Positions 1,763 to 22,021 of a DNA stretch of 54,496 bases are shown here, in pieces. The notes under the pieces are model-generated. The model saw nothing but the letters and a program-made list of their open reading frames with translations, was not told the DNA's origin and did not search any database. How positions within the stretch are numbered: position 1 is the first letter of the stretch; each line of letters starts with the position of its first letter. A program made the position numbers and the translations under genes. Source of the DNA: Pseudomonadota bacterium (GTDB taxonomy: Bacteria; Pseudomonadota; Alphaproteobacteria; MPNO01; UBA830); the NCBI GenBank assembly GCA_036339975.1, contig JAYYZV010000061.1:1-54496 (forward strand), given 5' to 3'.

Positions 1763-1768
1763 TTTTTA

Positions 1769-1806
1769 CGGGGCTGCCTATACCTATATGCAGCCCCGTT
1801 TTTCTC
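1769..1806 (+). terminator. Rho-independent terminator/attenuator between aapJ and aapQ
   Basis: Perfect 9-bp stem CGGGGCTGC (1769-1777) / GCAGCCCCG (1790-1798) with a 12-nt loop, then TTTTTCTC. This is the typical partial terminator after an SBP gene. Confidence 0.8.
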
Positions 1807-1855
1807 AAAATTAAACAAACTGGCAGATCACTAAAATGCTAGGAAGTCTGCCCCA

Positions 1856-3022
1856 ATGATCGACCGTATAACCTTTCGTAACATATGGTTCGACAGACGG
1901 GGCCGAGGATACCTACTGCAACTCCTCGTACTATTCTGCGTTGCAGCTTTCTTGGCTGTTATAGCCACAAATACAATCGCTAACTTGCAAAGAGCAGGTC
2001 TTACGTCTGGTTTCGGGTTTCTCGACGATCAGGCTTTTTTCGACATTAACCAGCGTCTAATTGAATACACCTCGCAGTCTTCCTTCGGAAGGGCTCTAAT
2101 TGTTGGTCTTTTAAACACTGTTCTGGTTTCAAGCCTTGGAATAATAACCGCCACTTTAATTGGTTTTATTGCAGGAATACTGAGGCTTTCAAATAACTGG
2201 CTTGTTAGTCGACTTATCACGTCTTACGTAGAGATCACACGAAATGTGCCACTTCTGCTGCAGATCATTCTTTGGTGGGCGATTTTAACAAGCCTGCCAA
2301 AAGTTCGAGAGAGTATGTCTATCTTTGGTGCATTCTTCCTGAACAATCGCGGATTACGCGCACCATCCCCAAATTTTGAAGCTCCATTTCTATGGGTATG
2401 CGTTGCGGTATTGTTTTGCTTATTCGTCACAGTGGCTATCTCTATTTGGTCGCGCCGGCGGCAAAAACTTACTGGGAAGACCTTTCCTGTGGTCCTTTCT
2501 GGCCTATTCCTTCTGGTCATCGTACCGATCTTTGTTTTCAACCTATTAGGCCAACCGATCAGCTGGGATATACCCGCAAGGACACGTTTCAATTTTCGAG
2601 GCGGGTTCAATATTACTCCCGAACTACTTGCGCTTTGGATTGCCCTTGCCACATACACGGGAGCTTTCATCTCTGAAATTGTAAGAGCAGGCATTCTTTC
2701 CGTCAGTACCGGACAGTCTGAAGCGGCTCTATCGCTCGGCCTTCGGAAAAATCAGACAATGCGCTTGATAATTATACCTCAAGCACTCCGCGTGATTATC
2801 CCACCGTTGACAAGTCAGTATTTAAATTTGACGAAAAATTCATCGTTGGCGATCGCAATCGGCTATCAGGATCTCGTCTCTATTGGCGGGACTATTCTTA
2901 ACCAAAGCGGGCACGCTCTTGAAGTCGTCGCAATCTGGATGGTTGTATACCTCAGCCTCAGTTTAGCCACCTCGGCGTTTATGAACTGGTATAACAAGCG
3001 AATATCGTTGGTGGAACGCTGA
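1856..3022 (+). CDS. aapQ: Amino-acid ABC transporter permease (AapQ/BztB type)
   Basis: 388-aa polytopic membrane ORF. EAA-type permease loop SEAALSLGLRKNQTMRLIIIPQALRVIIPP. Position and length match AapQ. Confidence 0.85.
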   Translation: MIDRITFRNIWFDRRGRGYLLQLLVLFCVAAFLAVIATNTIANLQRAGLTSGFGFLDDQAFFDINQRLIEYTSQSSFGRALIVGLLNTVLVSSLGIITATLIGFIAGILRLSNNWLVSRLITSYVEITRNVPLLLQIILWWAILTSLPKVRESMSIFGAFFLNNRGLRAPSPNFEAPFLWVCVAVLFCLFVTVAISIWSRRRQKLTGKTFPVVLSGLFLLVIVPIFVFNLLGQPISWDIPARTRFNFRGGFNITPELLALWIALATYTGAFISEIVRAGILSVSTGQSEAALSLGLRKNQTMRLIIIPQALRVIIPPLTSQYLNLTKNSSLAIAIGYQDLVSIGGTILNQSGHALEVVAIWMVVYLSLSLATSAFMNWYNKRISLVER

Positions 3023-3024
3023 TC

Positions 3025-4128
3025 ATGAGTGCTTCGAGCGATACAATTAAGCAGTACAAAGAGGCCCGCCCGCCCCCTATTGCATCGACAGGGATTATAG
3101 GCTGGCTGCGCCAGAATCTCTTTTCGAGCATGTCAAATACGGCTTTAACTCTCGTCGCCATTTATCTTCTCACGCTGGCAATACCGGCAATTTTGGACTG
3201 GGTGTTTCTAAGCTCCCAAATTTCTGGGGACACCAGGTTTGACTGTAAAGTGGAGGGAGCTTGCTGGGCCTGGATAGATCAACGCTTTGGACAATTTCTG
3301 TTCGGGTTTTACCCGGCCGGCGAAAGATGGCGAGTTGTAATCGCTTTTATACTTTTATTCCCGGCGCTCATTCCTTGGTTAACCCACGGCACACCAGGGC
3401 AACGTTACCTTCGATGGTTTTCGGTTGCTTACCCAGTGATTGCCACCATTTTGTTGGCGGGGGGATTTGGCCTTCAGGAAGTCCCAACGGACAAGTTTGG
3501 TGGGTTTATGCTAAATTTGATTGTGGGGCTTTCCGGGATTGTTCTGTCCCTCCCGGTTGGAATACTGCTAGCCCTCGGTAGGCAGTCAAAATTACCGCTG
3601 ATCAGGTGGTTCTCAATCGGCTTCATCGAAGCTGTCAGAGGTGTTCCTCTGATAACGTTGTTGTTCGTATCCAATATCCTCTTACCAATTTTCCTACCGC
3701 CGGATGTGACACTGGATTCGATCATTCGCGTTATCATAATGGTCACGGCTTTTGCCTCCGCTTACATGGCGGAGGTCATTCGAGGGGGGCTGCAGGCAAT
3801 ACCTTCAGGTCAATACGAAGCCGCACACGCAATGGGTTTAAATTACTGGAAATCGATGCGACTAATTATACTTCCTCAAGCCCTGAGAATATCAATTCCC
3901 GGCATCGTCAATACATTTACAGGGCTCTTTAAAGATACGACGCTGGTGATCGTAATCGGTCTTTTTGATATCCTTGGAATTGCTAACGCAATGGTTTCCA
4001 ACCCTGACTGGCTTGGGTTATCGACCGAGACTTATGTTTTTGTTGCAGTGTTCTTTTTCGCGGTTTGTTTTTCGATGTCACGTTACTCGATGTGGCTAGA
4101 ACGACGCCTAGGCAAGCAACGGCATTAG
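3025..4128 (+). CDS. aapM: Amino-acid ABC transporter permease (AapM/BztC type)
   Basis: 367-aa membrane ORF starting 3 nt after the aapQ stop. EAA loop [30 protein letters not shown]. Confidence 0.85.
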
Positions 4129-4139
4129 GAGGCCAGATC

Positions 4140-4910
4140 GTGAACAATTCTGAATCAAATAAATCAAACAATCGTCGCCCAGTTATAGACATTGAAGGGC
4201 TCAATAAATGGTTCGGTTCATTCCATGTGTTGCGGGACATATCACTATCTGTAGAACAGGGTGAAAAAATAGTCATTTGCGGTCCCTCGGGAAGTGGCAA
4301 ATCGACACTGATACGTTGTATCAATTTTTTAGAGGAACATCAGGAAGGACAGATAGTTGTTGATGGCATCGAGTTAACTGGGGATTTAAAAAACATTGAT
4401 GCTGTGCGTAGAGAGGTTGGAATGGTTTTTCAATCATTCAATCTATTTCCCCACCTATCTGTCATTGAAAATTGTACACTGGCGCCAATCTGGGTCCGAA
4501 AGACGCCACATGCAGAAGCAGAAGAACTCGCAATGGAGTATCTCGAGCGGGTAAAAATTCCAGAACAGGCTCACAAGTATCCTGGACAGTTATCTGGAGG
4601 ACAACAGCAAAGGGTCGCTATCGCGCGTTCCTTGTGCATGAAGCCCAAAATAATGTTGTTCGATGAACCCACTTCAGCTCTTGATCCAGAGATGATCAAG
4701 GAAGTCTTGGACGTTATGGTCGACCTAGCGGATTCGGGGATGACAATGCTTGTTGTCACCCATGAAATGGGTTTCGCAGCACAAGTCGCTGATCAAGTTA
4801 TTTTTATGGATGAAGGTCAGATTGTTGAGCAAAACACACCTGATGAGTTTTTCGAGAACCCTCAATCCGACCGGACAAAACTGTTTTTAAGCCAAATACT
4901 TAGCCATTGA
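4140..4910 (+). CDS. aapP: Amino-acid ABC transporter ATP-binding protein (AapP/BztD type)
   Basis: Walker [10 protein letters not shown], signature [13 protein letters not shown], Walker [13 protein letters not shown] prefer the in-frame GTG at 4140 (AGGAGG at 4127-4132, 7-nt spacing, 11 nt after the aapM stop) over the track start 4065, which overlaps aapM by 64 nt. Confidence 0.9.
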
Positions 4911-5009
4911 ATTTTTTTATTTGTTTGGTTTATTTGTCGGCGCTAATGACGTTAATGCTTACCCCGCATAACTCAGGAAAGTGAATAATATGGGGTGGGC
5001 GGGTAAACG

Positions 5010-6728
5010 CTAGCTTGGACCGCAAACGACGTTGACCAGCGCCTGGCGCTTTTCGCCGGTCACGACATCCACGGCTTTATCCAGTGTATCCATCAAATCT
5101 CTCGGTTCGGTAACCCGAAACCCTGCGCCTCCCGAGACTTCGACTGCCTTTTCGTAGTGCTGATCAACCGTGAAATGCGTTAACGGTTGGCGGTTTGCCT
5201 TAGCGGCGTATCCTTCTGGCTCCAGCCCTAGCGTGGACCTGTGTACAGCCTGCCAATGCTGGTTGTTGAACACTATCCAAAGGATAGGCAAATTCTGTTC
5301 GGCAGCCACGTAATGACATGACACCGGCACATTGAACATATAGGCCCCGTCGCCCTCCGTACCGATGACCAACTTATCCGGAGCAGCGAGTTGGGCGCCC
5401 AGCGCAACGCCCAGTCCGTGCCCCAGACCTGACGCCGCCCCGGCATTCAGCATCGTCCCCGGACGGTCGGTATCGATGTATTGCTGCATCAGCGGTGATT
5501 CCCGGACCATTATCGTATCCGGTTCGCGGAGTTCGTTGAGGCAGTGGGACAAAAATGCCGGGCTTATTGGCGATTGTTCCTTTTCAGCACTTAGCTTCGC
5601 CTCCCATTCATCTTCCAGTTTCTCGTGCGCCCTCGTAATGCGGTCTCTTCGGGTAGAGATTTTATCCGAAGCCGTTTTTTCAAATTGTGACATGGCGGGA
5701 ATTAAGGCGCGAAAACCGATATCCGCCGGGCAGGTCAATGAAATGTCGGCCGGAAACCCCCGGACTGGGACCATCGTATACATCGGGTCCGCCGCGATAT
5801 GAACTACCTTGCAATCGTCAGGCGGCGTCACCTGCGAAGGCAGCCACGGCACCACCGTATCGAACACGATAATTACATCGGCGTCGGCGACATAGGGATT
5901 AGGATTATAACCGGCATGCATCGGATGGCGTGGTGACATCGCGGTGGCACGGTTACGGTACTCGACAACCGGGATAGCAAACCTCTCCGCAAGGTCCGAC
6001 AGCGGCACCATAACCCCTGGATTACGCCCCCCCCAATTGGTGATCATGACCGGTCGCTCGGCATTTGCCAGCAGAGATGCGACCTCGTCCACCATATTGG
6101 GGTCGGGCCACGGTGGCGAGGCCGGCTGAACGCGGTTCGGGGAGTCAAAACTGAACTCGTCCATTTTGATGGATAGCACCTCCCGCGGTAACGACAAATA
6201 TACGGGCCCACGAGGCTCACTCATCGCTACCGACAGCGCGCGGTCGACTATCCCGGCGACCTGTTCGCCATTGCGTAGCTCGTAATCCCATTTGACAGCT
6301 TCGCGCGTCATTGCCGCTTGATCGTACATCTCCTGTGTCCAATGGATATCGAGACTGCGATGTCCCTTAAGGGTATCTTCGTTCGTCGGCGTGCGTCCCG
6401 CCGTGAACAGCATCGGAATATACCCCCGTGCCGCATTCAGCAGTCCGTTCATACCATTTGCGGTACCTACGTTGACGTGCATCATCGTCATCTGCGGCCG
6501 GCCAGAAATCATATAATGGCCAATGGCCATGTGCTGGGCGGTGTTCTCGTGTGGGCAAGTCACAGGCTCGGGTATTGGCGTACCCAGGGCCTGAGCTTTC
6601 GCAAGCGCCTCAATCAACGGCGCGAAATCAGTCCCTGCATTAGCAAAAAGGTAGTCGACACCACGGTCTGCCAACACCGATAGATAAGCGTCGGCTACGG
6701 TGCAATCTTTCAACGTCTTCTTCGGCAC
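5010..6728 (-). CDS. Thiamine-diphosphate-dependent enzyme (acetolactate synthase / benzoylformate decarboxylase superfamily), substrate unknown
   Basis: 572 aa. Pyr domain with catalytic Glu (PHENTAQHMAIGH). ThDP-Mg motif GDG-x26-NN (GTEGDGAYMFN...IVFNNQ). GTG start with GGGGGTGA SD. Last gene of the UbiD operon. Confidence 0.85.
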   Translation of the reverse strand: MPKKTLKDCTVADAYLSVLADRGVDYLFANAGTDFAPLIEALAKAQALGTPIPEPVTCPHENTAQHMAIGHYMISGRPQMTMMHVNVGTANGMNGLLNAARGYIPMLFTAGRTPTNEDTLKGHRSLDIHWTQEMYDQAAMTREAVKWDYELRNGEQVAGIVDRALSVAMSEPRGPVYLSLPREVLSIKMDEFSFDSPNRVQPASPPWPDPNMVDEVASLLANAERPVMITNWGGRNPGVMVPLSDLAERFAIPVVEYRNRATAMSPRHPMHAGYNPNPYVADADVIIVFDTVVPWLPSQVTPPDDCKVVHIAADPMYTMVPVRGFPADISLTCPADIGFRALIPAMSQFEKTASDKISTRRDRITRAHEKLEDEWEAKLSAEKEQSPISPAFLSHCLNELREPDTIMVRESPLMQQYIDTDRPGTMLNAGAASGLGHGLGVALGAQLAAPDKLVIGTEGDGAYMFNVPVSCHYVAAEQNLPILWIVFNNQHWQAVHRSTLGLEPEGYAAKANRQPLTHFTVDQHYEKAVEVSGGAGFRVTEPRDLMDTLDKAVDVVTGEKRQALVNVVCGPS

Positions 6729-6926
6729 GTTTCACCCCCAACCTTATAAATTGTCGCAAAGCATGCCTCTTTGGAGACTTGATGGCAAAATCTGTCGACT
6801 TTGCTCTCACGGCGCAAACCAATAACTCAGATCGAATATCGGACCACCCAGGAGACGATGCAGGTCCTGTACAAACATTATTCCGCGAGCCTTCTATAGT
6901 CCGCCGGCCGGAATTTTGGGTTGTCC

Positions 6927-8576
6927 CTAGTCTTCGTCCTCTCCCCTTAAGGTCCTGACCTCGGTATTCATGGTCAGGTCGCTGCGGCGACGCTGTGCAA
7001 TAATTTCGCCGGTCTTGAAATAGTCGCTCTCGACGGCACGCTGAGCCATCACATCGAACTCCTCTTCCCATTCTCCCAGAGAATAGCCATGCCATGGCAC
7101 TTGAGGCTTGAGTTCGGGAAGTCCAAGTTCATCCCAGATCTCCTTAGCATTTTCCATATATTCCTTTTTCGGAAGAGAGATCGGCGGAAAATCCTCCTTG
7201 AGAGTTGCGTCAAATAGGACCGAAGCGTCTTCTCCACCATTGCGGGCGCTACGCGGACCATGACCCGAGTCCCGGTGTTTCAGGATTTCGACGTCGAGCG
7301 CTGGATTGGCGCGGTAAGCCATCGCCCAGAAAACAGCATCTGCATTGTTCGGGTCGATGTCGTCGTTAACTGCGATCACGTACTTCCCCGCCGCCCGATG
7401 CAACGATGCGGCTCCATACATGGCACGCCAAATCTCCGTCGTCGGCATACCGCGCTCGCAAATTATGACTATCAGTTTGCGGATGTTCGTCAACGGCTCG
7501 TGCATCGACACGCGGATCACGCCTTTTATACCTAGGTGATCGCGGAGGTGCTCCGTGAACATTGGCTCGTAGGCAACTCGTTTAATAACAGAGGATTCCG
7601 AAGGCGTTACTTGGCTGATAATTGAGGTAAGGATTGCATCCCGCTTCCTCGTGATGCAGGTGACATCCATATAGGCGTTATATTCCTGAAGGTTCACGTG
7701 CCCGTGGGACTCACCGAAAGGTGCTTCAGGTTCTAAGTACTCGGTATCAATATAACCCTCGATAACGATTTCGGCTTCCGCCGGCACCAGAAGATCGACG
7801 GTCTTCGCCTTAACGACGTTGATCGGCGAGCCCGCTAGCGCACCAGCAACCCGGAATTCGTCAAGGTCCTCCGTCAGCTTGATCGCAGACGTGAACGTAA
7901 CCGATGGGGGGGCGCCAAGCACCACGGCTGCCGGCATCTTTTCTCCGCGTTTTTTATACTTTTCCCAGTGGATATAGATACCAGGACGGAGTTCCAAGGA
8001 CGGGTTCATACCCATCCGCTTCTGACCTTTGATCTGTCCGCGGTAGTTACCCATATTCTGGATTCCGCTGTCAGGATCCTTGGTGATATATTGGGACAAC
8101 GTCGTATAGGGGGCGTTATCCCAGCCCGGCGTTGATATTGGCACCGGGACACCATCAAGACCCTGCCCTTCGATATCCAAGTCGTCGCCCTGCCAGACTA
8201 TTTCTTGACACGGAGCGTCGTTAACTTCGACCGGATCGACCGGGTTCGCCATCGCCTGTTTCCAAGTCGCCTCAATCTCTTCGAGCTCGCAACCTATGCC
8301 GGTGCGATAGATATCTCGGCTCGCCGCCAGAACCCCGACGGCTACCGGGATATCAAATTTCCGTCCCTTTGAATCGACGACGTTGGTGAAAAGGAATGCC
8401 TTTCGGTCCTTCTCTTCAAGACCGCCGCGGAACTGCCAGCGCACCAACGGATGCAGTTCGGTATCCTTATTGATTTCCCGGTCGACCTTTACAAGAAGCC
8501 CTCGCCGGTCAAGCTCTTTCAGGTGGTCATGCAGGTCGGGATAGTCACGTTTCAAGGTCTTTTCGTTAGTTACCAT
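6927..8576 (-). CDS. UbiD-family (prFMN-dependent) decarboxylase/carboxylase, paralog 1
   Basis: 549 aa. UbiD hallmarks HPLVRWQ, IQNMGNYRG, YIHW and EAPFGESHGH (E-R-E and metal-ligand positions of Fdc1/UbiD). About 60-aa C-terminal extension shared with paralogs 2 and 3. Confidence 0.9.
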   Translation of the reverse strand: MVTNEKTLKRDYPDLHDHLKELDRRGLLVKVDREINKDTELHPLVRWQFRGGLEEKDRKAFLFTNVVDSKGRKFDIPVAVGVLAASRDIYRTGIGCELEEIEATWKQAMANPVDPVEVNDAPCQEIVWQGDDLDIEGQGLDGVPVPISTPGWDNAPYTTLSQYITKDPDSGIQNMGNYRGQIKGQKRMGMNPSLELRPGIYIHWEKYKKRGEKMPAAVVLGAPPSVTFTSAIKLTEDLDEFRVAGALAGSPINVVKAKTVDLLVPAEAEIVIEGYIDTEYLEPEAPFGESHGHVNLQEYNAYMDVTCITRKRDAILTSIISQVTPSESSVIKRVAYEPMFTEHLRDHLGIKGVIRVSMHEPLTNIRKLIVIICERGMPTTEIWRAMYGAASLHRAAGKYVIAVNDDIDPNNADAVFWAMAYRANPALDVEILKHRDSGHGPRSARNGGEDASVLFDATLKEDFPPISLPKKEYMENAKEIWDELGLPELKPQVPWHGYSLGEWEEEFDVMAQRAVESDYFKTGEIIAQRRRSDLTMNTEVRTLRGEDED

Positions 8577-8742
8577 ATTTCGCGTTCCAGTCTGGGCAGT
8601 TTCTGTGGTTGATCCAGAGGCCGAAATTGTGCGTCACCACATTGCCGAACCGCCACCAACAACCGCCGTTTTGCCTGTTGCCACAGCGACACGTCGATCC
8701 AGTTTTGCAATTATCAAATCATTCCGCCAAACATACAGTCCG

Positions 8743-10470
8743 TCATTTATCTTTAACCTGGGAGGCATCTTCCAGCTTGTCCCAGGTCAGGCTCTCGTCA
8801 ACATCATCACCGGCGCCGGGATTTCCCATATCGAGGGTGCGCACCTCGGTGTTGATGGGTACGTCGCCTCTTCGGCGCTGGGCGATGATCTGACCCGTGG
8901 TCCAGTACTCGCTCTTTACCGCCCGGCGGGCCATCGCCTCAAGTCCGGCATTCCATTCACCAAGATCGTAACCGAACCACGGCGCCTTAGGCTTAAGCTT
9001 AGGCAACCCGAGATCCTCCCATATTTTTTTCGCCTTTTCCATATACTCGCGTTTGGGTAACGAGACTGGCGGGAATGTCTCCTTAAGGGTGGCGTCAATC
9101 AGTACGGCGCTGTCTTCAGAATCCAGTAGGCTCCTAGGACCGTGCCCTTCATGCTTGTGCTTCAGTATCTCTACGTCGTTATGCGGTTTGCACCGATAGG
9201 ACATCGCCCAGAAGACGGCGTCGGTATCATCCGGATCGATGTCTTCATTGACAGCGATGATCCACTTTCCTTCTGCCTGACGCAAAGAAGCAACGCCATA
9301 CATCGCTCTCCAGATTTCTGTCCGCGGGACCCCGCGCTCTAATACGATGATAATCAACTTATGGAGCGAGGTCAGCGGCTCGTGAGTGGAAACGTGCTTA
9401 ACACCCTTAATACCCAGATGATCTCGCAGGTGTTCAATCTGACGCGCTTCATAGGCAGGACGTTTAATGGTTCCTGATTCCGATGGTGTTACCTGGCTTA
9501 CCCAGGATGTCATTACGGATTTTTCGCGCCTGGTAATCGCCGTAATATCCAGATAGGCGTTATATTCCTGTAGGTTAACGTGACCATGCGACTCCCCGAA
9601 CGGAGCTTCAGGCTCTAGAAGCTCCGTCGACACAAAACCCTCGATGACGATCTCAGATTCAGCGGGCACGATAAGATCAACCGTCTTGCATTTTGTAACA
9701 TTCAGCGGCGCGCCGGCGAGACCGCCGGACACCGCCAGCTCATCCAACTTCTCAGGCACTTTCTGCACAGCGGTAAAAGAGACTACCGGTGGCGCTCCGA
9801 TCACGACAGCGACGGGCATCGGCTTGCCAAGCTTTTTCCATTCCAGCCAATGCATATATCCACCGGTGCGGAGTTCTGTTGACGGGTTCATACCGAGTCT
9901 GTTTGGCGCCTTAACCATCCCGCGGTAATTGCCCATGTTCTGGACGCCTGTATTCGGATCCTTGGTAATAAAGTGTGAAGACGAGAAGTAAGGGGCATTA
10001 TCCCAACCCGGCGATGAAATCGGAACCGGAATGGCGTCCAGCCCATTTCCATTCAGAAGGTCGTCACCCTGAAATACCAAATCATGGCAAGGTGCGTCGC
10101 CATCCGGAACCATATTAGGTTTGAGTGGATTGTTGATGGCATTGATCCAAGTATTTTTCAGTTCCTTTAAGTCGCAACGCATGCCGAGTTGATAAATTTC
10201 CTGATTACCTGCCAACCCACAGACCAATACCGGAATGTCATACTTCCGCCCCTTGGAGTCCGAAATGTTCGTAAACAGAAAAGCCTTCCGATCTTCTTCT
10301 TCAATGCCGCCACGAAACTGCCAACGGACCAGCGGGTGCATTTCCGTGTCCTTGTTAATCTCCCTATCAATCTCGATCAGAAGGTTTTTCGCCCGAAGCT
10401 CCTCAATATGTTCGTGAAGGTCGGTGTATCCGCGATCTTCCAACGTCATACCAGCCGTTTTCGTTACCAT
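8743..10470 (-). CDS. UbiD-family (prFMN-dependent) decarboxylase/carboxylase, paralog 2
   Basis: 575 aa, full-length homolog of 6927-8576. Motifs VQNMGNYRG, YMHW and EAPFGESHGH. GGAGG SD 9 nt before the ATG at 10470. Extra acidic tail (GNPGAGDDVDESLTWDKLEDASQVKDK). Confidence 0.9.
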   Translation of the reverse strand: MVTKTAGMTLEDRGYTDLHEHIEELRAKNLLIEIDREINKDTEMHPLVRWQFRGGIEEEDRKAFLFTNISDSKGRKYDIPVLVCGLAGNQEIYQLGMRCDLKELKNTWINAINNPLKPNMVPDGDAPCHDLVFQGDDLLNGNGLDAIPVPISSPGWDNAPYFSSSHFITKDPNTGVQNMGNYRGMVKAPNRLGMNPSTELRTGGYMHWLEWKKLGKPMPVAVVIGAPPVVSFTAVQKVPEKLDELAVSGGLAGAPLNVTKCKTVDLIVPAESEIVIEGFVSTELLEPEAPFGESHGHVNLQEYNAYLDITAITRREKSVMTSWVSQVTPSESGTIKRPAYEARQIEHLRDHLGIKGVKHVSTHEPLTSLHKLIIIVLERGVPRTEIWRAMYGVASLRQAEGKWIIAVNEDIDPDDTDAVFWAMSYRCKPHNDVEILKHKHEGHGPRSLLDSEDSAVLIDATLKETFPPVSLPKREYMEKAKKIWEDLGLPKLKPKAPWFGYDLGEWNAGLEAMARRAVKSEYWTTGQIIAQRRRGDVPINTEVRTLDMGNPGAGDDVDESLTWDKLEDASQVKDK

Positions 10471-10502
10471 CTCACTAGCCTCCGGTCGTGTTATCTGATT
10501 TT

Positions 10503-12167
10503 TCAGGGTTGATCTTCATCCCAGCCCGGCACTGATCGGACATGGGTATTTGGTTTTACGCCAGCACGCCTGCGCTGGCCGCTTCGTTTACCATTCTCGA
10601 GGTATTTCCCGTGGGCAGCATGCTTGGCTAGCTGATCCCATTCTTCAGTCCAGTCGCCTAAGGAATATCCGTGCCAAGGGCTCTCAGGGTTCAGTGGCGG
10701 CAGACCAAGTTCTTCCCACAGTTCCCGGGCACGCTCCATGTATTCGCGTTTCGGCAGCGCCAAGGGAGGCATTTCGCGTTTCAGAGTGGCGTCTATCAAC
10801 AGCGTGGAATCCTCGGGACGGGTGCCATCCTTCCCTTTGGGACCATGCCCGGCGTCACGGTGCCGGAGGATTTCGACATCCTTATCGGGGTCAGCCCGAT
10901 ACCCCAGCGACCAGAACACAGCGTCACCATTATCAGGGTCAATATCCTCATTGACGGCGATGACATACTTGCCGCAATCGGCGCGGAGACTAGTCGCACC
11001 GTATAGTGCACGCCATACCTCGGTACGCGGGGTTCCGGGCTCCATCTGAAGGAAGATCACGCGGCGGATATTGGTCAGCGGCTCGTGAAGGAAGACGCGC
11101 TTCACCCCCTTGATGCCAAGCTGGTCGCGCAGATGGGCAAGAAACATTGGCTCATAGGCAACGCGCTTGATAACCGACGACTCTGATGGTGTCACCTGAC
11201 TGATAATTGACGAGAGAACGGCGTCCGATTTACGCGTAATCGCCGAAACCTCGAAAATCATATTGTAATCTTCAAGCGAAATATGGCCGTGGGACTCGCC
11301 AAATGGTGCCTCAGGTTCGAGGTATTCCGTATCTATAAAGCCCTCAATGATAATTTCGGCCTCTGCCGGAACCATCAGATCCAAGGTTCTGCACTTCACA
11401 ATCCGGATTGGTGTACCGGTAAGGGCGCCGGCGATCGTCAGTTCATCAACATCTCGCCTGATTTTTTGAGGTCCCGTATATGCGACTGCCGGGGGACAAC
11501 CTAGCACCACGGCACATGGCATTCTCTCGCCCCGCGCCCGATACTTCTCCCAGTGCAGGTATCCGCCTGCACCTCCTTCCCGGGCCGACATACGTACCGC
11601 CATCCGGTTCGACGCTTTTAGCCCTCCACGGTAAGTGCCCATGTTCTGGATGCCGGTTTCTGGATCGACAGATACGAAAAGACCAGAAGTCAGATACGGC
11701 GCGCTATCGAAGCCGGGAGTAGATATCGGAACTGGAAGTGCATCGAGGCCATTTCCATCTCCAATAAGGTCTTCGCCAGAGATCACTATCTCCTGACAAG
11801 CCCCTTCAGAAACGGTAACGGTATCAATGGGATTGTTTACCGCTTGCGCCCAATGCGGGCCGATATCACTCAACGGTACGCCAATTCCGATACTATACAC
11901 TTCCCGATTGGCGGCAAGCGCACCGACGACCACCGGCATGTCGAAACTCCGGCCGCGACTATCGCAAACATTGGTAAAAAGGAAGGCTTTTCGGCCAGAA
12001 TCAGGGATCCCGCCGCGGTACTGCCATCGCACGAGCGGGTGTAGTTCGGTATCCTTGTTAATTGGGCGATCGATCCGTAGGAGTAAACCTGCTTCTTCCA
12101 AATCGGATAAATGGTCCTGCAGATCCGGATAACCGCGGGAGGGTGTCGCACTAGTTCCCATTTTCAC
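10503..12167 (-). CDS. UbiD-family (prFMN-dependent) decarboxylase/carboxylase, paralog 3
   Basis: 554 aa. Motifs IQNMGTYRG, YLHW and EAPFGESHGH. The track start is the GTG at 12167. The ATG at 12161 has better SD spacing (AGGCGAAG). Stop lies 32 nt before the paralog 2 start. Confidence 0.9.
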   Translation of the reverse strand: MKMGTSATPSRGYPDLQDHLSDLEEAGLLLRIDRPINKDTELHPLVRWQYRGGIPDSGRKAFLFTNVCDSRGRSFDMPVVVGALAANREVYSIGIGVPLSDIGPHWAQAVNNPIDTVTVSEGACQEIVISGEDLIGDGNGLDALPVPISTPGFDSAPYLTSGLFVSVDPETGIQNMGTYRGGLKASNRMAVRMSAREGGAGGYLHWEKYRARGERMPCAVVLGCPPAVAYTGPQKIRRDVDELTIAGALTGTPIRIVKCRTLDLMVPAEAEIIIEGFIDTEYLEPEAPFGESHGHISLEDYNMIFEVSAITRKSDAVLSSIISQVTPSESSVIKRVAYEPMFLAHLRDQLGIKGVKRVFLHEPLTNIRRVIFLQMEPGTPRTEVWRALYGATSLRADCGKYVIAVNEDIDPDNGDAVFWSLGYRADPDKDVEILRHRDAGHGPKGKDGTRPEDSTLLIDATLKREMPPLALPKREYMERARELWEELGLPPLNPESPWHGYSLGDWTEEWDQLAKHAAHGKYLENGKRSGQRRRAGVKPNTHVRSVPGWDEDQP

Positions 12168-12276
12168 TTCGCCTATTGTGAAATTACGTGCCGACCGTCT
12201 GTGGATACAGACCAGACAATACGACGGCGGAACCCAAATTTCAATACGCTACCGTATGGCATGTAAGATACTGATA

Positions 12277-12876
12277 TTAATCAGGCAAATTAGTCGACAG
12301 TAGTAGGTGGTATTCTCTCGCACGGGAGAGCCGCTCTTCCAGCGGTAGCCCACCGCTTCGCAAAAATTCTCCTGTCATTATTGCCTGGTAGATTTGACCC
12401 CGCACCCGAGCCTCTTCCTGCGGAAAACCGATTTCCTTCAGTTCCCTAATCAGAAACGCCAGTCTCTGCGCGTCACGGTCTTCTATCCGCCGCGCCGCGT
12501 CAGGATCTTTATGCGAGAAGAGCCGCAAGGTCACCGTTTGTCCACGCGTAGTGCGCCGGATCACACTTTCGAACAACTTCCAGATCCTATCCGCAGCATT
12601 ATCGCCACCGTCGCAATTTGGCGACAGATACTCCTCCCCGATCGTAAACCAGCGATCAAGTAGCGCGTCCAACAATTCCTGACGGTCTTTAAAATGCCAG
12701 TAAAAACTGCCCTTGGTGACGCCGAGGCGTTTTGCAAGCGGCTCCACACGAACCCCGTCTAAACCTGTTTCGCCAAGCATTTCCCACGCACCGGAGATCC
12801 AGTCTCCTTTCGTCAAGCTCTCGTTTACCCGCCCCCTGTCTGCGGCCGAGGATGATGAGTCAGCGGTTTTCACCAT
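12277..12876 (-). CDS. TetR/AcrR-family transcriptional regulator
   Basis: N-terminal HTH (GVRVEPLAKRLGVTKGSFYWHFKDRQELL). I use the internal ATG at 12876 (GGAGGAG SD 7 nt upstream, 199 aa) rather than the track start 12987, whose extra 37 residues look non-protein-like. Confidence 0.85.
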   Translation of the reverse strand: MVKTADSSSSAADRGRVNESLTKGDWISGAWEMLGETGLDGVRVEPLAKRLGVTKGSFYWHFKDRQELLDALLDRWFTIGEEYLSPNCDGGDNAADRIWKLFESVIRRTTRGQTVTLRLFSHKDPDAARRIEDRDAQRLAFLIRELKEIGFPQEEARVRGQIYQAIMTGEFLRSGGLPLEERLSRAREYHLLLSTNLPD

Positions 12877-13049
12877 TGTCGTGCTCCTCCAGTGAAAATG
12901 AATGCCGGCAAATCGGCCAGAGAGCAACCCGCAACAGTATTGATATACGAAATTAAATATTTTTAAACTTCGCTGCCCTCTTTCCAATTTCTCTCCGTCC
13001 CCTTAGTCTTTTGGTACCCATAACTGAAAGGGCAAAAGGGAGGATCCAC

Positions 13050-14075
13050 ATGTCCAAGCGTATTAAACACTTAATCACTAGCGTATCCGCCGTTGCGGTA
13101 ATTGGGATTGCCGCTCCGGCTGTCACAAACGCCAACGTTGCAGATTTCTACAAGGGGAAGACGGTCACGGTCATGGTGCCGTCAGGGCTAGGGGCAACCC
13201 TCGGTCTTTACGGCCGGCTAACGACAGAACACCTTGGGAAACATATTCCCGGGAATCCAACGGTAATTATCCAGTCACGCCCTGGAGGGGGAGGCACCAA
13301 GGGTGCGGCATATGCGTATAACGCAGCGCCGAAAGACGGAACCTATATCGCCGAAGCGTTGGCCCCTTCGGCGCTCGCACCACTACTTCGCAAGATGAAA
13401 TTTGATGCGTCAAAATTTCAATGGCTGGGATCGATCACGCCGCGTCCGGCTGTCGTTTCCGTATGGCACAAGGCGCCGGTCAGCGATCTAGCTTCTGCGC
13501 AGAAGCGTCAAGCTATTATGGGTTCGACTGGCCTCGGTTCAGAAACCTATCTCGCGCCGACACTACTGAACCACATCGCCGGAACAAAGTTCAAGATAGT
13601 CAAAGGCTATAAGGGTGGCGCCAAGATCAACAAAGCCATGGAAGGCGGCGAAGTGCACGGTCGGATGAATTACTGGTCTGGCTGGACCGCAGGCAAACCC
13701 GCTTGGGTCAGTGGCAATAAACTGCGTCACATCGTGAGCTACGGCGGCAACATCCCTGCGCTACCCAATCTGCCGAAGATGATCGATCTTGCAAAAACAG
13801 CGGAACAGAAAGCAATGGTTCGGTTCCTAGAGGTAGCGCCGCGGATCGGCATGGGTTTCTGGGTACATCCGGAAGTTCCGAAAGCTCGTGTAGCGGCACT
13901 CCGTAAGGCGTTCATGTCAATGCTTAACTCCCCGGCATTTCTGGCGGATGCGAAGAAGCGTAAGGCACCGGTCAATCCAGTGCCGGGTAAGGTGCTCGAC
14001 AAGCTTGTCGCCGAAGCTTACGCAACACCTTCTGCAACCATCGGAAAGCTAAAGAAAGTGTTCGGCTTCAAGTAA
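13050..14075 (+). CDS. Tripartite tricarboxylate transporter substrate-binding protein (Bug/TctC family)
   Basis: 341 aa from the ATG at 13050 (GGGAGGA SD). Signal peptide (ITSVSAVAVIGIAAPAVTNA). Bug-family sequence (FYKGKTVTVMVPSGLG, IIQSRPGGGGTKGA). Divergent from the TetR gene. Confidence 0.85.
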   Translation: MSKRIKHLITSVSAVAVIGIAAPAVTNANVADFYKGKTVTVMVPSGLGATLGLYGRLTTEHLGKHIPGNPTVIIQSRPGGGGTKGAAYAYNAAPKDGTYIAEALAPSALAPLLRKMKFDASKFQWLGSITPRPAVVSVWHKAPVSDLASAQKRQAIMGSTGLGSETYLAPTLLNHIAGTKFKIVKGYKGGAKINKAMEGGEVHGRMNYWSGWTAGKPAWVSGNKLRHIVSYGGNIPALPNLPKMIDLAKTAEQKAMVRFLEVAPRIGMGFWVHPEVPKARVAALRKAFMSMLNSPAFLADAKKRKAPVNPVPGKVLDKLVAEAYATPSATIGKLKKVFGFK

Positions 14076-14152: not shown

Positions 14153-16288
14153 TCAGAACATATTTGCCCACGGGATTGACCGCACTTGGGGGTACCAGTC
14201 ACCTAACAGCGACTGCGGCCACGGGATAATCAAAACATAGTGGAACAGTAAATATGAGAGGGCCCAGATAGATGATGCCACTCCCAGCGTCACCCCCCAA
14301 TCTTCCTTACCCTCGAAGCGCATATAAGCAACGAGGAAAACGAACATCGCCGGCAAAAGACCGATGACCGCGGAAGCACCGAAGAAAAACACCAGCCATG
14401 AGAAATACGCAATGACCCGCTTCGTGATTTCAGCCCCCGGCAAGTCACCGTAATCGGCGCTAATGTCAAAATGCACATCGCTTTGTGCAGGCGCGCCTCC
14501 CTCGCCGCGTCCGGGTATCCCATCTTCGGTCGCAGCCACTGGTTCACCAGGCGCCACAAACATTGCCGACAAAATTAGCCAACCAATAAAAATCATCGCC
14601 GCTACGGACACAACCTGAGGAATCAGCCTGGCGCCAAATTCCCAGCTAGACGAAATACCAAATGCCGTCGCGAATAGCGCGAATAGAATGATCGCAAAAA
14701 CAAAATCAGGATTGATCGCAGCTTTTTGAAAACCAAATTTGCTCGCCGCCTTGGAAGTTTTGGCGCGGGCGCGGTAACCTCGAATGATAGGTGCCAGCAC
14801 CCCATAAAGCGTGACAGCAAAGATGATTGGCACATAAGGTGCGAACACCACATTGCCGTCTCCGAAGTCGCGCCAAATCCAAAGCCAGTCTGCGCCATAC
14901 CGCTCTGTCGAAATGAACATATAGCGTTCTACTAAACCGCCGAGAACAAAACCGAGGATCAGCGGCGGCCGCGGCCAGCGCAGACGTTTCATAATCCAAC
15001 CGATAAGTCCGAATATCAAAAGAGCGTAAATATCTCCCCACTGACGAGAACCTTGGAACGCCCCTACATAGGTCACAGCCAGCACGACAGGCGCAAGTAT
15101 ACCGATCCGGATCAGTGCCACCTTTGCAAGCTGGTTCGCAAAGGTGAAACAAATACCCGCACCCAGAATATTGGCGATGGCCACCGACCATACCAGTGTG
15201 TAGGTGACATCCAGATTTTTGGTTAACATTTCCGGCCCGGGCACGAGGCCATGAATCAGAAACGCCCCCAGAACCAGTGCCATCGAGGCGGATCCAGGAA
15301 CGCCAAATGCGATGGTCGGCACAAGCGCACCGCCTTCTTTGGCGTTGTTAGACGATTCAGATGCTATCACGCCTCGAACGTCACCCTTACCAAAGGTTTC
15401 AGGCGCTCCTTTCTCGGATCGCGCAGCATGTCCGTAGGCGATCCAGTCGATAACCGACGCGCCAATTCCTGGCACCGCACCCAGTGACGAACCGATCGAC
15501 GAACATCGGAGTACCAAGAACCAGTTTCTCAAGGTATCCTTAATTCCTTCGAGCTGCCCGAAGCGGACATCTTGCTTCTCGCCGGCCTTCACATTAATCG
15601 ATTGTTTTGTAATCGCCATGTCGGCGAGTTCCGGTATTGCAAATAGGCCAAGTGCAAGGGGAACAACCGGCAACCCGTCCCACAGATAAAGGGAGTCAAA
15701 CGTCCATCGCAGGGTACCCGTCTGCGGATCATCTCCCGCCGTGGCTACCATCAGACCAATACAAGCTCCCGCCAGGCCCTTTAGCGGCGAACCACCAGAT
15801 AGGACGGCCACGAGGGAGAGGCCAAAAACGCAGATCGCCAGCAATTCTGGGGAGCCTATTTCAAGTACAATCGGACGCAGTACAGGCACACTGACACCGA
15901 GCAACAGGGCACCAAACAACCCGCCTATCACGGAAGCAGAAAAGGCGGCACCAAAAGCCCGACCCGCCTCGCCCTTTCGTGCCATTGGGTAGCCGTCCAA
16001 TATCGTAGCCGCCGATCCCACCGTCCCCGGCACTCCAAATAACACCGCTGGTATTGTATCAGATGTCACAACGACCGACTGCAGGCCCATCATGAAGGCG
16101 AGGGCGGTGAATGGGTCCATGTTGAATGTAAAAGGCAGGAGGAGTGACAATCCAACCAAGCCGCCGAGCCCCGGGATCACACCCAGAACGAGACCTATAA
16201 TCACCCCGAAGGAGAGAAAGCCAAGCCTTTCAAGGCTCGCCATATTTTGGAACGCCTGTATGGCGCTACCCAACATATCAACTTCCAT
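14153..16288 (-). CDS. Tripartite tricarboxylate transporter large permease TctA with fused C-terminal TctB-like 4-TM domain
   Basis: 711 aa. The first ~500 aa are typical TctA (GVIPGLGGLVGLSLLLPFTF, DGYPMARKG). The last ~200 aa add four further hydrophobic helices after a hydrophilic linker. GGGAG SD before the ATG at 16288. No separate tctB gene. Confidence 0.8.
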   Translation of the reverse strand: MEVDMLGSAIQAFQNMASLERLGFLSFGVIIGLVLGVIPGLGGLVGLSLLLPFTFNMDPFTALAFMMGLQSVVVTSDTIPAVLFGVPGTVGSAATILDGYPMARKGEAGRAFGAAFSASVIGGLFGALLLGVSVPVLRPIVLEIGSPELLAICVFGLSLVAVLSGGSPLKGLAGACIGLMVATAGDDPQTGTLRWTFDSLYLWDGLPVVPLALGLFAIPELADMAITKQSINVKAGEKQDVRFGQLEGIKDTLRNWFLVLRCSSIGSSLGAVPGIGASVIDWIAYGHAARSEKGAPETFGKGDVRGVIASESSNNAKEGGALVPTIAFGVPGSASMALVLGAFLIHGLVPGPEMLTKNLDVTYTLVWSVAIANILGAGICFTFANQLAKVALIRIGILAPVVLAVTYVGAFQGSRQWGDIYALLIFGLIGWIMKRLRWPRPPLILGFVLGGLVERYMFISTERYGADWLWIWRDFGDGNVVFAPYVPIIFAVTLYGVLAPIIRGYRARAKTSKAASKFGFQKAAINPDFVFAIILFALFATAFGISSSWEFGARLIPQVVSVAAMIFIGWLILSAMFVAPGEPVAATEDGIPGRGEGGAPAQSDVHFDISADYGDLPGAEITKRVIAYFSWLVFFFGASAVIGLLPAMFVFLVAYMRFEGKEDWGVTLGVASSIWALSYLLFHYVLIIPWPQSLLGDWYPQVRSIPWANMF

Positions 16289-16373: not shown

Positions 16374-16402
16374 TGTCAAGCAATGCCATACGATATCGTA
16401 TG
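16374..16402 (-). promoter_or_regulatory. Candidate promoter -35 (TTGACA) preceded by a perfect 16-bp palindrome upstream of the tctA-like gene
   Basis: CATACGATATCGTATG (16387-16402) is a perfect palindrome. On the minus strand a consensus TTGACA (16379-16374) follows 7 nt later. The -10 element is not obvious. Confidence 0.4.
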
Positions 16403-16411: not shown

Positions 16412-17761
16412 TTACTCCGCCGCAACTGCCGTGTAATCCGGATGCCGGGCGCTTACGTCGATCTTGAAGATATTTTGCGCAGTCCGACCCAAGATATTCC
16501 GTTTTGCCGCTTCGTCGATAAAAGGTAGATCCCAAATCACGGACGGAATGTCCATATCCCAATGCGGGTAGTCGGATGCCCAGAGAAGCTGTGTTTCAGC
16601 GTTCATAGCTTTAAAGGTGGCTTCCAGCAATCCGATATCGTCCGGCATCTCCATCGGTTGTGTCGTGTAATACATGTCACGCATGTAATCGCTAGGTAGC
16701 TTTTTCAGCATCGGGCACTCCGACGAACGCATTCGGTATTGTGTGTCCAGTCGCTGCATCAGGAACGGGACCCAAGAAATACCGGATTCGATCCAGACCA
16801 CCGGCAGTCCCGGAAACCGCTCATTCATTCCGTTTAGCACCCAGTTCGTGCAATGCACCACATTGTACCAGGTGAAGCCTAGCGCGTGGACCGCTAGAAA
16901 CCGATTACAGGTCCGAAACATCGGATCATCCCAGTTAAAACCGGAATGGAACCCAATCGGAAGTCCAAGTTCCTCGATGGCATGGTAAATTTTCATGTAG
17001 TCGTTGTGATGGACAGGCCGGTGACGAACTGACGTAACCATAAATCCGATTACCCCTTCGGCGTCCCCGAAATCCTCGACGATTTTCAACGCCGCGTCTG
17101 GATTATTGAACGGAAGGTACAGCATGGATTTCATGCGCGGGCTTCCTGGCAAAATCTTTTCGACCAGCCATCGGTTATAGGCGCGCGCCAGTGTTACCTC
17201 GACGTCGGCTTGAGGATGCATCGCAAGGCCAAGCATCGGCGTTGGGAATACACAGGCGTAGTCTACACCCATAGCATCCATCCAGCGGTGACTAAGGTGC
17301 ACATCGCGATGGGTGCCGTCGTCCGGTGTTTCCTCCATCCCGCGCAACGGATAACGGGTCACCCGTCCGCCAATATCCTGATATCCGACGCGTCCCAGCG
17401 AGAACATCGATCCGCGGTGGGCTATCTGCTGCGCTGATTTGGCCAGTTGGCGCAAGACCGGATCCTCAATGAATTCAACGATCTCTTTCATCGATTCCGT
17501 TTCGTAGTGATGAGCATCGACATCGATAATCAGCATATCGTTGAAGTTGCGCCGGTCGCGCTGCCGTGCGGCATTCTGCATGAGCTTTTCGGTGTCGAAT
17601 TCCTCGACGCTCATGCGGAAATATCTCTCATTCCCTGTAGGGAGTTCCATTGTTACCGTCCCCCGGATCGACGTTTTGACGTTCATTGTAACGCGAAATA
17701 TTCCTGAGGCCAAAGGATTGGATTCATCCGCTGTCTGCCCCATAAACCCCATATCCAACAC
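16412..17761 (-). CDS. Amidohydrolase_2 (ACMSD/LigW-type metal-dependent hydrolase or decarboxylase) family protein
   Basis: IDVDAHHYE metal motif near the N-terminus, HSGF, and C-terminal WASDYPHWD. The maximal ORF starts at the GTG at 17761, only 14 nt from the divergent gene. Internal ATGs at 17743, 17686 or 17650 (GGGGGACGG SD) are plausible true starts. Confidence 0.8.
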   Translation of the reverse strand: MLDMGFMGQTADESNPLASGIFRVTMNVKTSIRGTVTMELPTGNERYFRMSVEEFDTEKLMQNAARQRDRRNFNDMLIIDVDAHHYETESMKEIVEFIEDPVLRQLAKSAQQIAHRGSMFSLGRVGYQDIGGRVTRYPLRGMEETPDDGTHRDVHLSHRWMDAMGVDYACVFPTPMLGLAMHPQADVEVTLARAYNRWLVEKILPGSPRMKSMLYLPFNNPDAALKIVEDFGDAEGVIGFMVTSVRHRPVHHNDYMKIYHAIEELGLPIGFHSGFNWDDPMFRTCNRFLAVHALGFTWYNVVHCTNWVLNGMNERFPGLPVVWIESGISWVPFLMQRLDTQYRMRSSECPMLKKLPSDYMRDMYYTTQPMEMPDDIGLLEATFKAMNAETQLLWASDYPHWDMDIPSVIWDLPFIDEAAKRNILGRTAQNIFKIDVSARHPDYTAVAAE

Positions 17762-21924: not shown

Positions 21925-22021
21925 TCTAATTCTCCCCGCCCCGTTTTCCCATATCGAATGGGTTTTGCACAATGGCGCAAGCCAACTATCATTAGAAAAT
22001 AATATTTCTCCGGGAGGGCAA

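Follow-up and report, generated by a model that had tools for sequence, protein, structure and literature searches.

Why would a bacterium keep three full-length UbiD-family decarboxylases, none of them with a visibly lost active site, side by side behind a TetR gene? This question is raised by contig JAYYZV010000061.1 (NCBI GenBank assembly GCA_036339975.1), a stretch of 54,496 nucleotides (nt) from an alphaproteobacterium of the UBA830 lineage, which as a whole we refer to as the window. A preliminary description of positions 5010 to 12876 left the choice between one hetero-oligomeric (de)carboxylase and a funnel of three enzymes, and our evidence leans toward separate enzymes. We propose that the block belongs to a TetR-controlled module whose three separate prenylated FMN (prFMN) decarboxylases would differ in specificity and act on aromatic or (N-)heteroaromatic (poly)carboxylates imported by a tripartite tricarboxylate transporter (TTT), a reading to which we give about an even chance of being right. 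The family and its chemistry are already known; what is new is the subfamily, the arrangement of three paralogs with intact active sites in an aerobic context, and the regulon. The genes of the block are the following.

12277..12876, minus strand: TetR-family repressor, 199 amino acids (aa) from the ATG at 12876; Pfam TetR_N, E 1.7e-13
10503..12167, minus strand: UbiD paralog A, 554 aa; Pfam UbiD_N, UbiD and UbiD_C; residues N175, R180, E242, E286 and E291
8743..10470, minus strand: UbiD paralog B, 575 aa; Pfam UbiD domains; residues N178, R183, E288 and E293
6927..8576, minus strand: UbiD paralog C, 549 aa; Pfam UbiD domains; residues N174, R179, E240, E284 and E289
5010..6728, minus strand: thiamine diphosphate (ThDP)-dependent enzyme of the PRK08327 type, 572 aa; three TPP domains (Pfam)

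The layout first described was confirmed: three co-directional, full-length UbiD paralogs are preceded by the TetR gene and followed by the ThDP gene, with spacers of 109 nt (TetR-A), 32 nt (A-B), 166 nt (B-C) and 198 nt (C-ThDP). The longest open reading frame (ORF) for TetR runs to 236 aa from a TTG at 12987; the true start is the ATG at 12876, which has a GGAGGAG ribosome-binding site 7 nt before it and agrees with the end coordinate originally given for this gene. Among the related loci with which the window was compared (designated L001, L002 and so on), TetR orthologs of 59-83% identity occupy the same position in L001-L008, L028, L030, L056 and L063. All three paralogs have the three-domain architecture of the UbiD family (UbiD_N, the prFMN-binding UbiD domain and the UbiD_C oligomerisation domain), with E values for the Pfam UbiD domain of 5e-49, 6e-48 and 1e-54 across A, B and C; UbiD_C scored above its gathering score in all three, and UbiD_N scored above it in A and slightly below it in B and C. 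The motifs QNMGxYRG, YxHW and EAPFGESHGH were found in each of them. Aligned identity is 54% for A-B, 61% for A-C and 65% for B-C, close to the 55-70% estimated by eye. An Rfam search of positions 4800-13200 returned no RNA element.

Where in the UbiD family do these proteins belong? We scored them against the curated NCBIfam subgroups canonical UbiD, MqnL-type SCO4490, VdcC, BagN/FevL and phenylphosphate carboxylase alpha/beta, and A, B and C all fell far below the cutoffs of the UbiD models: 123-149 bits against 788 for UbiD (NF008175), 139-162 against 650 for VdcC, 92-99 against 565 for Ppc alpha and 73-104 against 469-565 for phenylphosphate carboxylase alpha/beta (TIGR02723/TIGR02724). 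The generic model TIGR00148 gave 192-217 bits against a cutoff of 245. Their best matches among solved structures were HmfF (E 1.5e-34), E. coli UbiD (E 2.4e-34) and a "UbiD family decarboxylase" (7PDA), with identities of 29-31% to HmfF and 28-30% to E. coli UbiD. In a protein library clustered at 50% identity, the subfamily comprises very few full-length clusters, and the next full-length relatives reach at most about 45%. The best 120 matches to C among 5.8 billion proteins are 75-95% identical to it, and nearly all of these are unnamed or called "UbiD family decarboxylase", the few organism names being those of metagenome-assembled genomes (MAGs). The nearest genomes are marine alphaproteobacterial MAGs (UBA830, UBA7314 and "Rhodospirillaceae").

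An origin of each paralog from a different characterised clade was considered and rejected, as the three are each other's closest relatives, share at most 31% identity with solved UbiDs and score below the NCBIfam cutoffs. Judged by their phylogeny, A, B and C are three ancient orthogroups within one uncharacterised UbiD subfamily. We found no published account of the trio, of the subfamily or of the PRK08327 ThDP enzyme in the literature, and no published pathway to which the block had been assigned; subscription-only papers could hold one.

To define the orthogroups, 124 UbiD-like ORFs were taken from the window and 67 related loci and grouped by identity to the window paralogs, which gave 23 members for A, 28 for B and 40 for C. 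In a neighbor-joining tree (110 sequences, 100 bootstraps), all groups were monophyletic at 98-99 (A 98, B 99), with B and C as sisters (92), in agreement with the initial view that the duplications are old. The A clade also holds single-copy A-like genes, and the C group includes genes found without A or B. The full trio recurs at about 22 of the 67 loci, in two gene orders. The marine group has the order TetR-A-B-C of the window. In a second group (L062 and L064-L067), TctC is followed by B, a short-chain dehydrogenase/reductase (SDR), A and C, with A and C overlapping by 8 nt; its C proteins are 75-78% identical to that of the window, and database entries similar to them bear the name Defluviicoccus. 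Orthologs of the window and of L062-L067 share 65% identity for A, 77-79% for B and 75% for C. In L061 and L063, the start and stop of A and B overlap or abut.

The 166-nt B-C spacer of the window (8577-8742) is the site of an SDR gene in the relatives L030 (9185-9940) and L063 (8263-9021), and this SDR is 72% identical to that of the B-SDR-A-C clusters; the gene between B and C is lost in the window and in L001.

Ratios of nonsynonymous to synonymous substitution (dN/dS) against close relatives were about 0.04 for A, about 0.01 for B and 0.006-0.036 for C, those of B and C being the lowest in the cluster; with dN tiny and dS saturated, these values are upper-bound style indicators only. As far as such ratios can tell, A, B and C are all under strong purifying selection, and none is decaying. 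The alignment spans 549 columns; in 172 of them all orthogroups share the same conserved residue, and in another 28 the residue is conserved within groups but differs between them. Could the three then simply be isozymes that do not divide the work, redundant copies preserved by chance or for the sake of dosage? Their shared domains and catalytic motifs would fit such an explanation, but the paralogs are 54-65% identical to one another whereas orthologs are 65-97% identical, the three orthogroups are well supported, and 28 positions have been fixed differently in each. Moreover, purifying selection acts on all three, and so long a persistence would not be expected of redundant copies, which makes redundancy scarcely credible to us.

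The catalytic residues were located by taking the HmfF chain of the Protein Data Bank (PDB) from the HMMER alignment and re-aligning it with 43 diverse representatives. HmfF R152, E254 and E259 correspond to R180/R183/R179, E286/E288/E284 and E291/E293/E289 of A/B/C, and these catalytic Arg-Glu-Glu residues are invariant over 27 subfamily members; HmfF N147 corresponds to N175/N178/N174. We take the metal and phosphate ligands of UbiD enzymes to be the Asn, His and Glu represented by N168, H191 and E233 of Fdc1. The Mn/K-bridging Glu, which E. coli UbiD has in SEYAFAG, is matched in all three paralogs by an invariant Glu (in DEL or DEF; E240 in C). The His of the canonical enzymes (E. coli H196, HmfF H169) lies 21-22 residues after the Asn, and at that spacing A, B and C have an invariant Glu (E195 in C); the invariant His of YxHW (H203 in C) sits 8 residues beyond it.

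Thus the preliminary description, which had read the three motifs as the metal/prFMN and catalytic positions, was right for the Glu-Arg-Glu network, the Asn and the Glu, but its use of the YxHW His as a metal ligand is insecure, since the canonical His aligns with the Glu eight residues earlier. Its statement that no copy is dead fits both the intact Glu-Arg-Glu and Asn/Glu ligands and the dN/dS values of 0.006-0.04, and our alignment found no loss of the catalytic residues or of the Asn and Glu ligands in any of the three paralogs. HmfF H296, R304 and R331, presumably the residues that bind the distal carboxylate and confirmed as to identity in the PDB chain, are replaced by Ser, Tyr and Arg in A and C and by Ser, Tyr and His in B, and therefore A, B and C are not HmfF orthologs.

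Do three intact active sites mean three enzymes or one? Twelve of the 28 group-specific positions fall within residues 152-200 of C, around and just past QNMGxYR and up to the expected site of the canonical His, and at 15 of the 28 it is A that departs from the other two, with a remodelled loop after the N/R motif. In Fdc1 we take the residues just before the His ligand, which correspond to this stretch, to line the substrate pocket. The position of the group-specific residues near this motif therefore suggests that A, B and C differ in specificity, and the His of B at the site of HmfF R331, where A and C have Arg, points the same way. The region most conserved between the paralogs is the oligomerisation domain, at 61-71% identity.

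The most serious alternative, in our view less likely, is that A, B and C join in a single hetero-oligomeric prFMN (de)carboxylase such as a mixed hexamer. Such a complex would resemble phenylphosphate carboxylase, with its two UbiD-like subunits, and the carboxylases proposed for benzene and naphthalene, but with an active site kept in all subunits. All three orthologs have been kept together over deep divergence despite a shuffled gene order, their starts and stops overlap or abut elsewhere (A/C and A/B, as described above), B and C are the slowest-evolving genes of the cluster, and the oligomerisation domain is the part best conserved between the paralogs. Against this stand the catalytic residues kept in every subunit and the group-specific positions, which cluster by the active-site motif and not in the oligomerisation domain. 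In addition, both C-type and A-like genes are found as single copies, in several cases near ubiX: C-type genes have no A or B within 10 kb in L015, L017, L020, L021, L026 and L027, and B and C are found with no A nearby in L012 and L019. Nor are there any small accessory subunits like VdcD or Ppc gamma/delta.

The preliminary description had further remarked that no UbiX is encoded nearby. In the 54.5-kb window we found no ORF of 180-211 aa with a Pfam Flavoprotein domain, and tblastn with E. coli UbiX as the query gave no match at E <= 10. The same probe matched next to relatives in L043, L068 and L069, where one hit was confirmed by Pfam Flavoprotein and another is UbiX in RefSeq. The remark is thus true of the window but does not mark anything anomalous: no trio locus has ubiX within 10 kb, whereas in cultured bacteria single members of the subfamily sit close to it, and ubiX lies within a few genes of single members in L043, L068, L069, L070 and L072. 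In L043 an A-like gene is followed by ubiX. The single-copy member of L015 lies beside Mo hydroxylases, a cupin and an amidohydrolase, and that of L027 beside an AMP-ligase and a distant UbiD.

Searches of plasmids with tblastn revealed subfamily members of 54-60% identity in Paraburkholderia caribensis MBA4, Neorhizobium petrolearium OS53, Sinorhizobium meliloti LMB1 and several S. fredii strains, including NGR234, among others. In Paraburkholderia (P. caribensis, L069), ubiX is directly upstream of the subfamily ubiD. The uncharacterised rhizobial megaplasmid block (S. fredii NGR234 pNGR234b, S. meliloti LMB1 pA, N. petrolearium OS53) has the order Mo-hydroxylase subunits, A-like UbiD, second Mo subunit, GntR, UbiX, TIGR02444 protein, TctC, ThDP enzyme and TTT permease, so that ubiX lies three genes from the subfamily ubiD. 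It resembles the window in its UbiD subfamily (58-59% identity to A), TctC, TTT permease and ThDP enzyme, the last being 46% identical to another ThDP enzyme, about 600 aa long, with which the trio is associated in other genomes. Unlike the window block, it has one UbiD, a ubiX, two flanking Mo hydroxylases of the xanthine dehydrogenase family, a GntR in place of TetR, and no counterpart of the oxygenase described below.

On the evidence of these blocks in cultured relatives, the subfamily is tied to prFMN supply, one member can be the sole UbiD of a cluster, and the link with TTT and ThDP genes is general. The prFMN of the trio is most probably supplied in trans, from a ubiX elsewhere in the genome. 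In Rhodobacter capsulatus, which belongs to the Alphaproteobacteria, a ubiD-ubiX operon serves quinone synthesis (PMC10626278). A subfamily UbiD on a plasmid of Phyllobacterium zundukense (L071, 133119-134741) matches in three pieces with no annotated CDS and is likely a pseudogene in that strain.

UbiD enzymes often need cofactor-loading helpers, such as LpdD and PhdC (PMC10865409, PMC13040415). One or two of the paralogs might accordingly be partners in prFMN handling, maturation or regulation that do not act as decarboxylases in vivo, and that neither ubiX nor a known chaperone occurs at any trio locus, together with the deviation of A at more than half of the group-specific positions, would be in keeping with such a role. 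We nevertheless consider it improbable, as the Glu-Arg-Glu network is invariant in all three orthogroups, the known helpers are small and unrelated to UbiD, and in the rhizobial clusters the A-like gene is the only UbiD near ubiX and hence stands alone.

The functional unit is defined by the TTT transporter, an oxygenase and a shared candidate operator, all of which the preliminary description had overlooked. The relevant features are the following.

12216-12244, minus strand (read from 12244 to 12216): promoter-like site TTGAAA-17-TATTGT in the TetR-A spacer, found by promoter scan
12244..12257, upstream of UbiD-A: operator-like palindrome ATACG-N4-CGTAT, copy 1, sequence ATACGGTAGCGTAT
13011..14075, plus strand: TctC-type periplasmic binding protein; Pfam TctC; divergent from tetR
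14153..16288, minus strand: fused TctA-TctB, membrane component of the TTT transporter, 711 aa; Pfam TctA (E 8e-130) and a weak TctB match
16388..16401, 100 nt upstream of tctAB: operator-like palindrome ATACG-N4-CGTAT, copy 2, sequence ATACGATATCGTAT
16412..17761, minus strand: amidohydrolase-related dinuclear oxygenase (ARO), listed ORF 449 aa; Pfam Amidohydro_2

When the 150 nt upstream of A were aligned for 11 relatives, one nearly invariant block, CCATACGGTGGCGTATTGAA, stood between unalignable flanks. Its core is the palindrome ATACG-N4-CGTAT, which overlaps the -35 box of the promoter-like site. The exact palindrome is present at the orthologous position upstream of A in L001-L003, L005-L008, L028, L030, L056 and L063, and about 45-60 nt upstream of tctAB in L001, L008, L030 and L056. 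The window contains exactly two perfect copies, those listed above. TetR probably binds ATACG-N4-CGTAT, our candidate operator, and the predicted regulon would comprise the trio, possibly with the ThDP gene, and the TTT membrane component. Because the same conserved palindrome precedes both A and tctAB, the trio is tied to a TTT carboxylate importer.

The description of the block as a TetR-headed operon holds insofar as tetR precedes the trio, but it was overstated: a conserved operator-like palindrome and a promoter-like site lie between tetR and A, and the trio is therefore predicted to have its own repressible promoter. No terminator-like sites were found on the minus strand in the spacers, and a generic inverted-repeat scan of the spacers found none of at least 10 nt. 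Another palindrome, GTCTGT-N4-ACAGAC (12197-12212, GTCTGTGGATACAGAC), unique in the window and situated between the promoter-like site and the start of A, is probably not an operator, being absent from all 69 related loci.

The best solved relatives of TctC are terephthalate-binding proteins (E 2.5e-14). TctC orthologs of 62-90% identity adjoin the trio in both gene orders, and the fused TctA-TctB likewise accompanies it in both. The Amidohydro_2 neighbor gave its best PDB match to 8sm7 (E 1.8e-37), followed by SfbO, AibH and PtmU3. The signature of the ARO family, to which AibH2, PtmU3, SfbO and DitZ belong, consists of an N-terminal D-x-H and a C-terminal D-x-P-H-x-D/E motif (PMC13154177), and the product of 16412-17761 carries both, as DAH and DYPHWD. 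Going by its motifs, the protein is an amidohydrolase-related dinuclear (Fe2 or Mn/Fe) oxygenase; the motifs and PDB matches ruled out a decarboxylase of the LigW/ACMSD type. Its orthologs in trio loci are 62-94% identical and about 412 aa long, and the true start of the 449-aa listed ORF is therefore probably near 17650. A small Rieske ferredoxin adjoining ARO serves as electron donor (PMC10811679), and a 122-aa Rieske protein adjoins ARO in L065-L067 and is also present in L063.

How does the ThDP enzyme fit into this module? With 644.6 bits against a cutoff of 456, the enzyme matches NCBIfam NF006203, and it carries the GDG-X(24-27)-NN motif of ThDP enzymes in the form GDG-X26-NN (GDGAYMF...IVFNN). 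Among solved structures it comes closest to benzaldehyde lyase, benzoylformate decarboxylase and oxalyl-CoA decarboxylase (E about 1e-26), and we know of no member of the PRK08327 group whose reaction is known. Enzymes of this type occur in L002-L008, L014, L030, L042, L056 and L063 and are absent after C in L001 and L048, the two closest relatives. A second ThDP enzyme, of about 600 aa, is 25% identical to that of the window, where it is not found; it is a broadly conserved companion of the trio and is usually paired with an FMN-dependent 2-hydroxy-acid dehydrogenase.

We therefore rejected the window ThDP enzyme as the conserved partner of the trio, given its 25% identity to the 600-aa type and its absence from the two closest relatives; on its distribution, the gene is a variable accessory of the cluster. 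The preliminary description was correct in that a ThDP gene follows C, but that gene is the variable one, and the conserved partner is another, which the window does not contain.

A conserved companion module lies beside the trio in L065 (11870-21635) and also in L062, L064, L066, L067 and L063. Its genes encode two FMN-dependent 2-hydroxy-acid dehydrogenases, the 600-aa ThDP enzyme, an ABC transporter whose binding protein is of the SsuA/NMT1 type, ARO, the 122-aa Rieske protein and a protein of 108 aa that matches no family; some copies have acquired a PIN/PhdYeFM toxin-antitoxin pair by insertion. Positions 1-4910 of the window hold an amino-acid-type ABC transporter operon with a GC content of 0.46-0.47, against about 0.54 elsewhere, and no long ORF in 1-750. 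In the window the operon has been inserted at the place that the 600-aa ThDP gene occupies in L030. In L030 itself it forms an insert with the PRK08327 ThDP gene on one side and, on the other, the remnant of a truncated FMN-dehydrogenase gene together with the 600-aa ThDP gene.

UbiD enzymes catalyse reversible reactions, and sets of several UbiD paralogs are familiar mainly from carboxylases of anaerobes. The three enzymes might thus be physiological carboxylases that activate a C-H bond, as proposed for anaerobic benzene, naphthalene and phenylphosphate systems. Their context is aerobic, however, with the O2-dependent ARO, a VanA-like Rieske oxygenase, a TauD-family dioxygenase and a flavin monooxygenase; high-affinity carboxylate importers share the predicted regulation of the trio; no ATP-dependent or phosphatase partner subunits are present; and the scores against phenylphosphate carboxylase alpha/beta were low, as reported above. 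We hold a physiological carboxylase to be very improbable. Phenylphosphate carboxylase of Thauera aromatica and the proposed benzene and naphthalene carboxylases are similar in having more than one UbiD-like paralog side by side, working together, but they come from anaerobes and have two paralogs, whereas the trio has three intact paralogs in an aerobic context and no gamma/delta (phosphatase) genes.

Other characterised enzymes are informative in different respects. HmfF of Pelotomaculum thermopropionicum (PDB 6H6V/6H6X) shares the three-domain UbiD fold, the Asn and Arg of N-x4-R and both Glu residues of E-x-P-F-G-E; its substrate is a heteroaromatic dicarboxylate, 2,5-furandicarboxylate, and proteobacterial hmf clusters also use a TctC-type receptor. 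It differs in its low identity to the trio proteins, which are about 100 aa longer at the C terminus and have Ser and Tyr in place of its H296 and R304, and it is encoded by a single gene beside hmfG (ubiX), in contrast to the three paralogs and missing ubiX of the window. E. coli UbiD, the 4-hydroxy-3-polyprenylbenzoate decarboxylase, has the prFMN-binding motifs in common with the trio, but it serves quinone biosynthesis, whereas the context of the trio is catabolic, and its H196 aligns by spacing with the Glu of the trio.

XCDC of Cupriavidus sp. LA-1 is a recently characterised, phylogenetically isolated UbiD that converts a carboxylate intermediate, "XC", to xanthine (PMC12391406). Going by its published description, it is similar as an N-heteroaromatic acid decarboxylase whose cluster also encodes UbiX, a Mo hydroxylase and an enzyme of the amidohydrolase type, a context resembling that of the single-copy subfamily members in L015 and L068; unlike the block studied here, it has purine/pyrimidine permeases instead of TTT, no ThDP enzyme and a single UbiD.

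Returning to the module of three separate decarboxylases, we propose the following model. The TTT transporter (TctC and the fused TctAB) would import the acid, and the acid or its product would free TetR from the ATACG-N4-CGTAT sites before ubiD-A and tctAB. A, B and C, each most likely as its own homo-oligomer, would then each take a carboxyl group off an sp2 carbon, using prFMN from a ubiX elsewhere in the genome, and would act either on related isomers or on successive intermediates of one polycarboxylated ring. ARO would hydroxylate the substrate or the product, and the benzoylformate-decarboxylase-like ThDP enzyme might handle a 2-oxo-acid or acyloin side reaction in the lineages that carry its gene. 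We infer the separate homo-oligomers, the distinct specificities, the direction of the reaction and the class of the substrate. Hints as to the last come from the terephthalate-type relatives of TctC, from the Mo hydroxylases that lie near relatives and, along with amidohydrolases, elsewhere in the window, and from how many enzymes release CO2; they suggest polycarboxylated aromatics or N-heterocycles.

Several observations weigh against this model. A hetero-oligomer would be just as likely to have its three genes tightly conserved together and translationally coupled, and the conserved oligomerisation domain would permit mixed oligomers, neither supporting nor excluding them. The occurrence of C alone was judged over 10 kb on either side, and the genomes concerned may encode A and B at other places. 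The group-specific residues were placed in the active site by sequence position only, the AlphaFold2 model of paralog C (27-sequence alignment) having a mean pLDDT of 52, too poor for residue mapping. The canonical His ligand is not placeable in A, B and C; from the alignment, E195 or H203 of C could serve instead, and cofactor or metal binding may differ from that of known UbiDs. Finally, ubiX was found within 10 kb of none of the trio loci, and the window has no ortholog of the 122-aa Rieske protein of L065, which leaves ARO there with no Rieske ferredoxin beside it.

Several further genes are found elsewhere in the window. A probable N-heterocycle catabolic island (29403-41123) contains an isochorismatase-family hydrolase, an amidohydrolase, two PF06684 "AA_synth" proteins and two Mo hydroxylases of the xanthine dehydrogenase family. 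The first Mo hydroxylase (32076-34430) is 42% identical to the Mo subunit beside the rhizobial UbiD, the second lies at 37537-40284 with an FAD subunit at 40287-41123, and the overlapping ORFs 35115-36044 and 36005-37537 have no Pfam match. Divergently oriented to the ARO gene, a plus-strand gene (17776-18540) encodes a 254-aa protein with a citrate-synthase C-terminal-like domain only, perhaps citryl-CoA-lyase-like, which is kept there in L001, L002 and L007 (82-93%); a family III CoA-transferase is encoded close by, at 19651-20829.

A VanA-like Rieske oxygenase and an AMP-forming ligase occupy 20860-23789. This ligase is 44-47% identical to ligases near the single-copy C-type UbiD in L015, L017 and L027, of which L015 and L027 each also carry a distant (27%) UbiD paralog; such ligases hint that some members of the subfamily may act on CoA thioesters. 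The stretches 41390-47154 and 50101-52923 hold unrelated genes, namely those for a NifU-like protein, IspG (GcpE), a pair of 2-oxoacid:ferredoxin oxidoreductase proteins, a flavin monooxygenase, a dioxygenase of the TauD family and a MarR regulator.

UbiDs are wanted as reversible C-H carboxylation catalysts; to our knowledge, only a few dozen have known substrates, and multi-paralog sets have been examined only in anaerobes that are hard to grow. The block described here represents a well-defined, widespread and strongly conserved subfamily with no characterised member, and three diverged active sites long kept together constitute a natural experiment. TetR and its defined candidate operator could offer a simple handle toward the inducer and hence the substrate, and tractable cultured relatives are available in S. 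fredii NGR234, S. meliloti and Paraburkholderia caribensis. It is conceivable, if rather doubtful, that the trio is a new kind of prFMN machine, either a mixed A/B/C oligomer with an active site in every subunit or a three-step line that removes several carboxyls from one polycarboxylated aromatic or N-heteroaromatic ring, taken up through a tricarboxylate-type transporter. If so, a possible Glu in place of the canonical His ligand would represent a variant cofactor site, and, because the block is common in MAGs of marine, freshwater, soil and sludge Alpha- and Betaproteobacteria, it could mark an unseen turnover route for carboxyl-rich aromatic dissolved organic matter. Should the substrates indeed be polycarboxylated aromatics or N-heterocycles, the block would supply a missing step in their turnover in seawater and soil.

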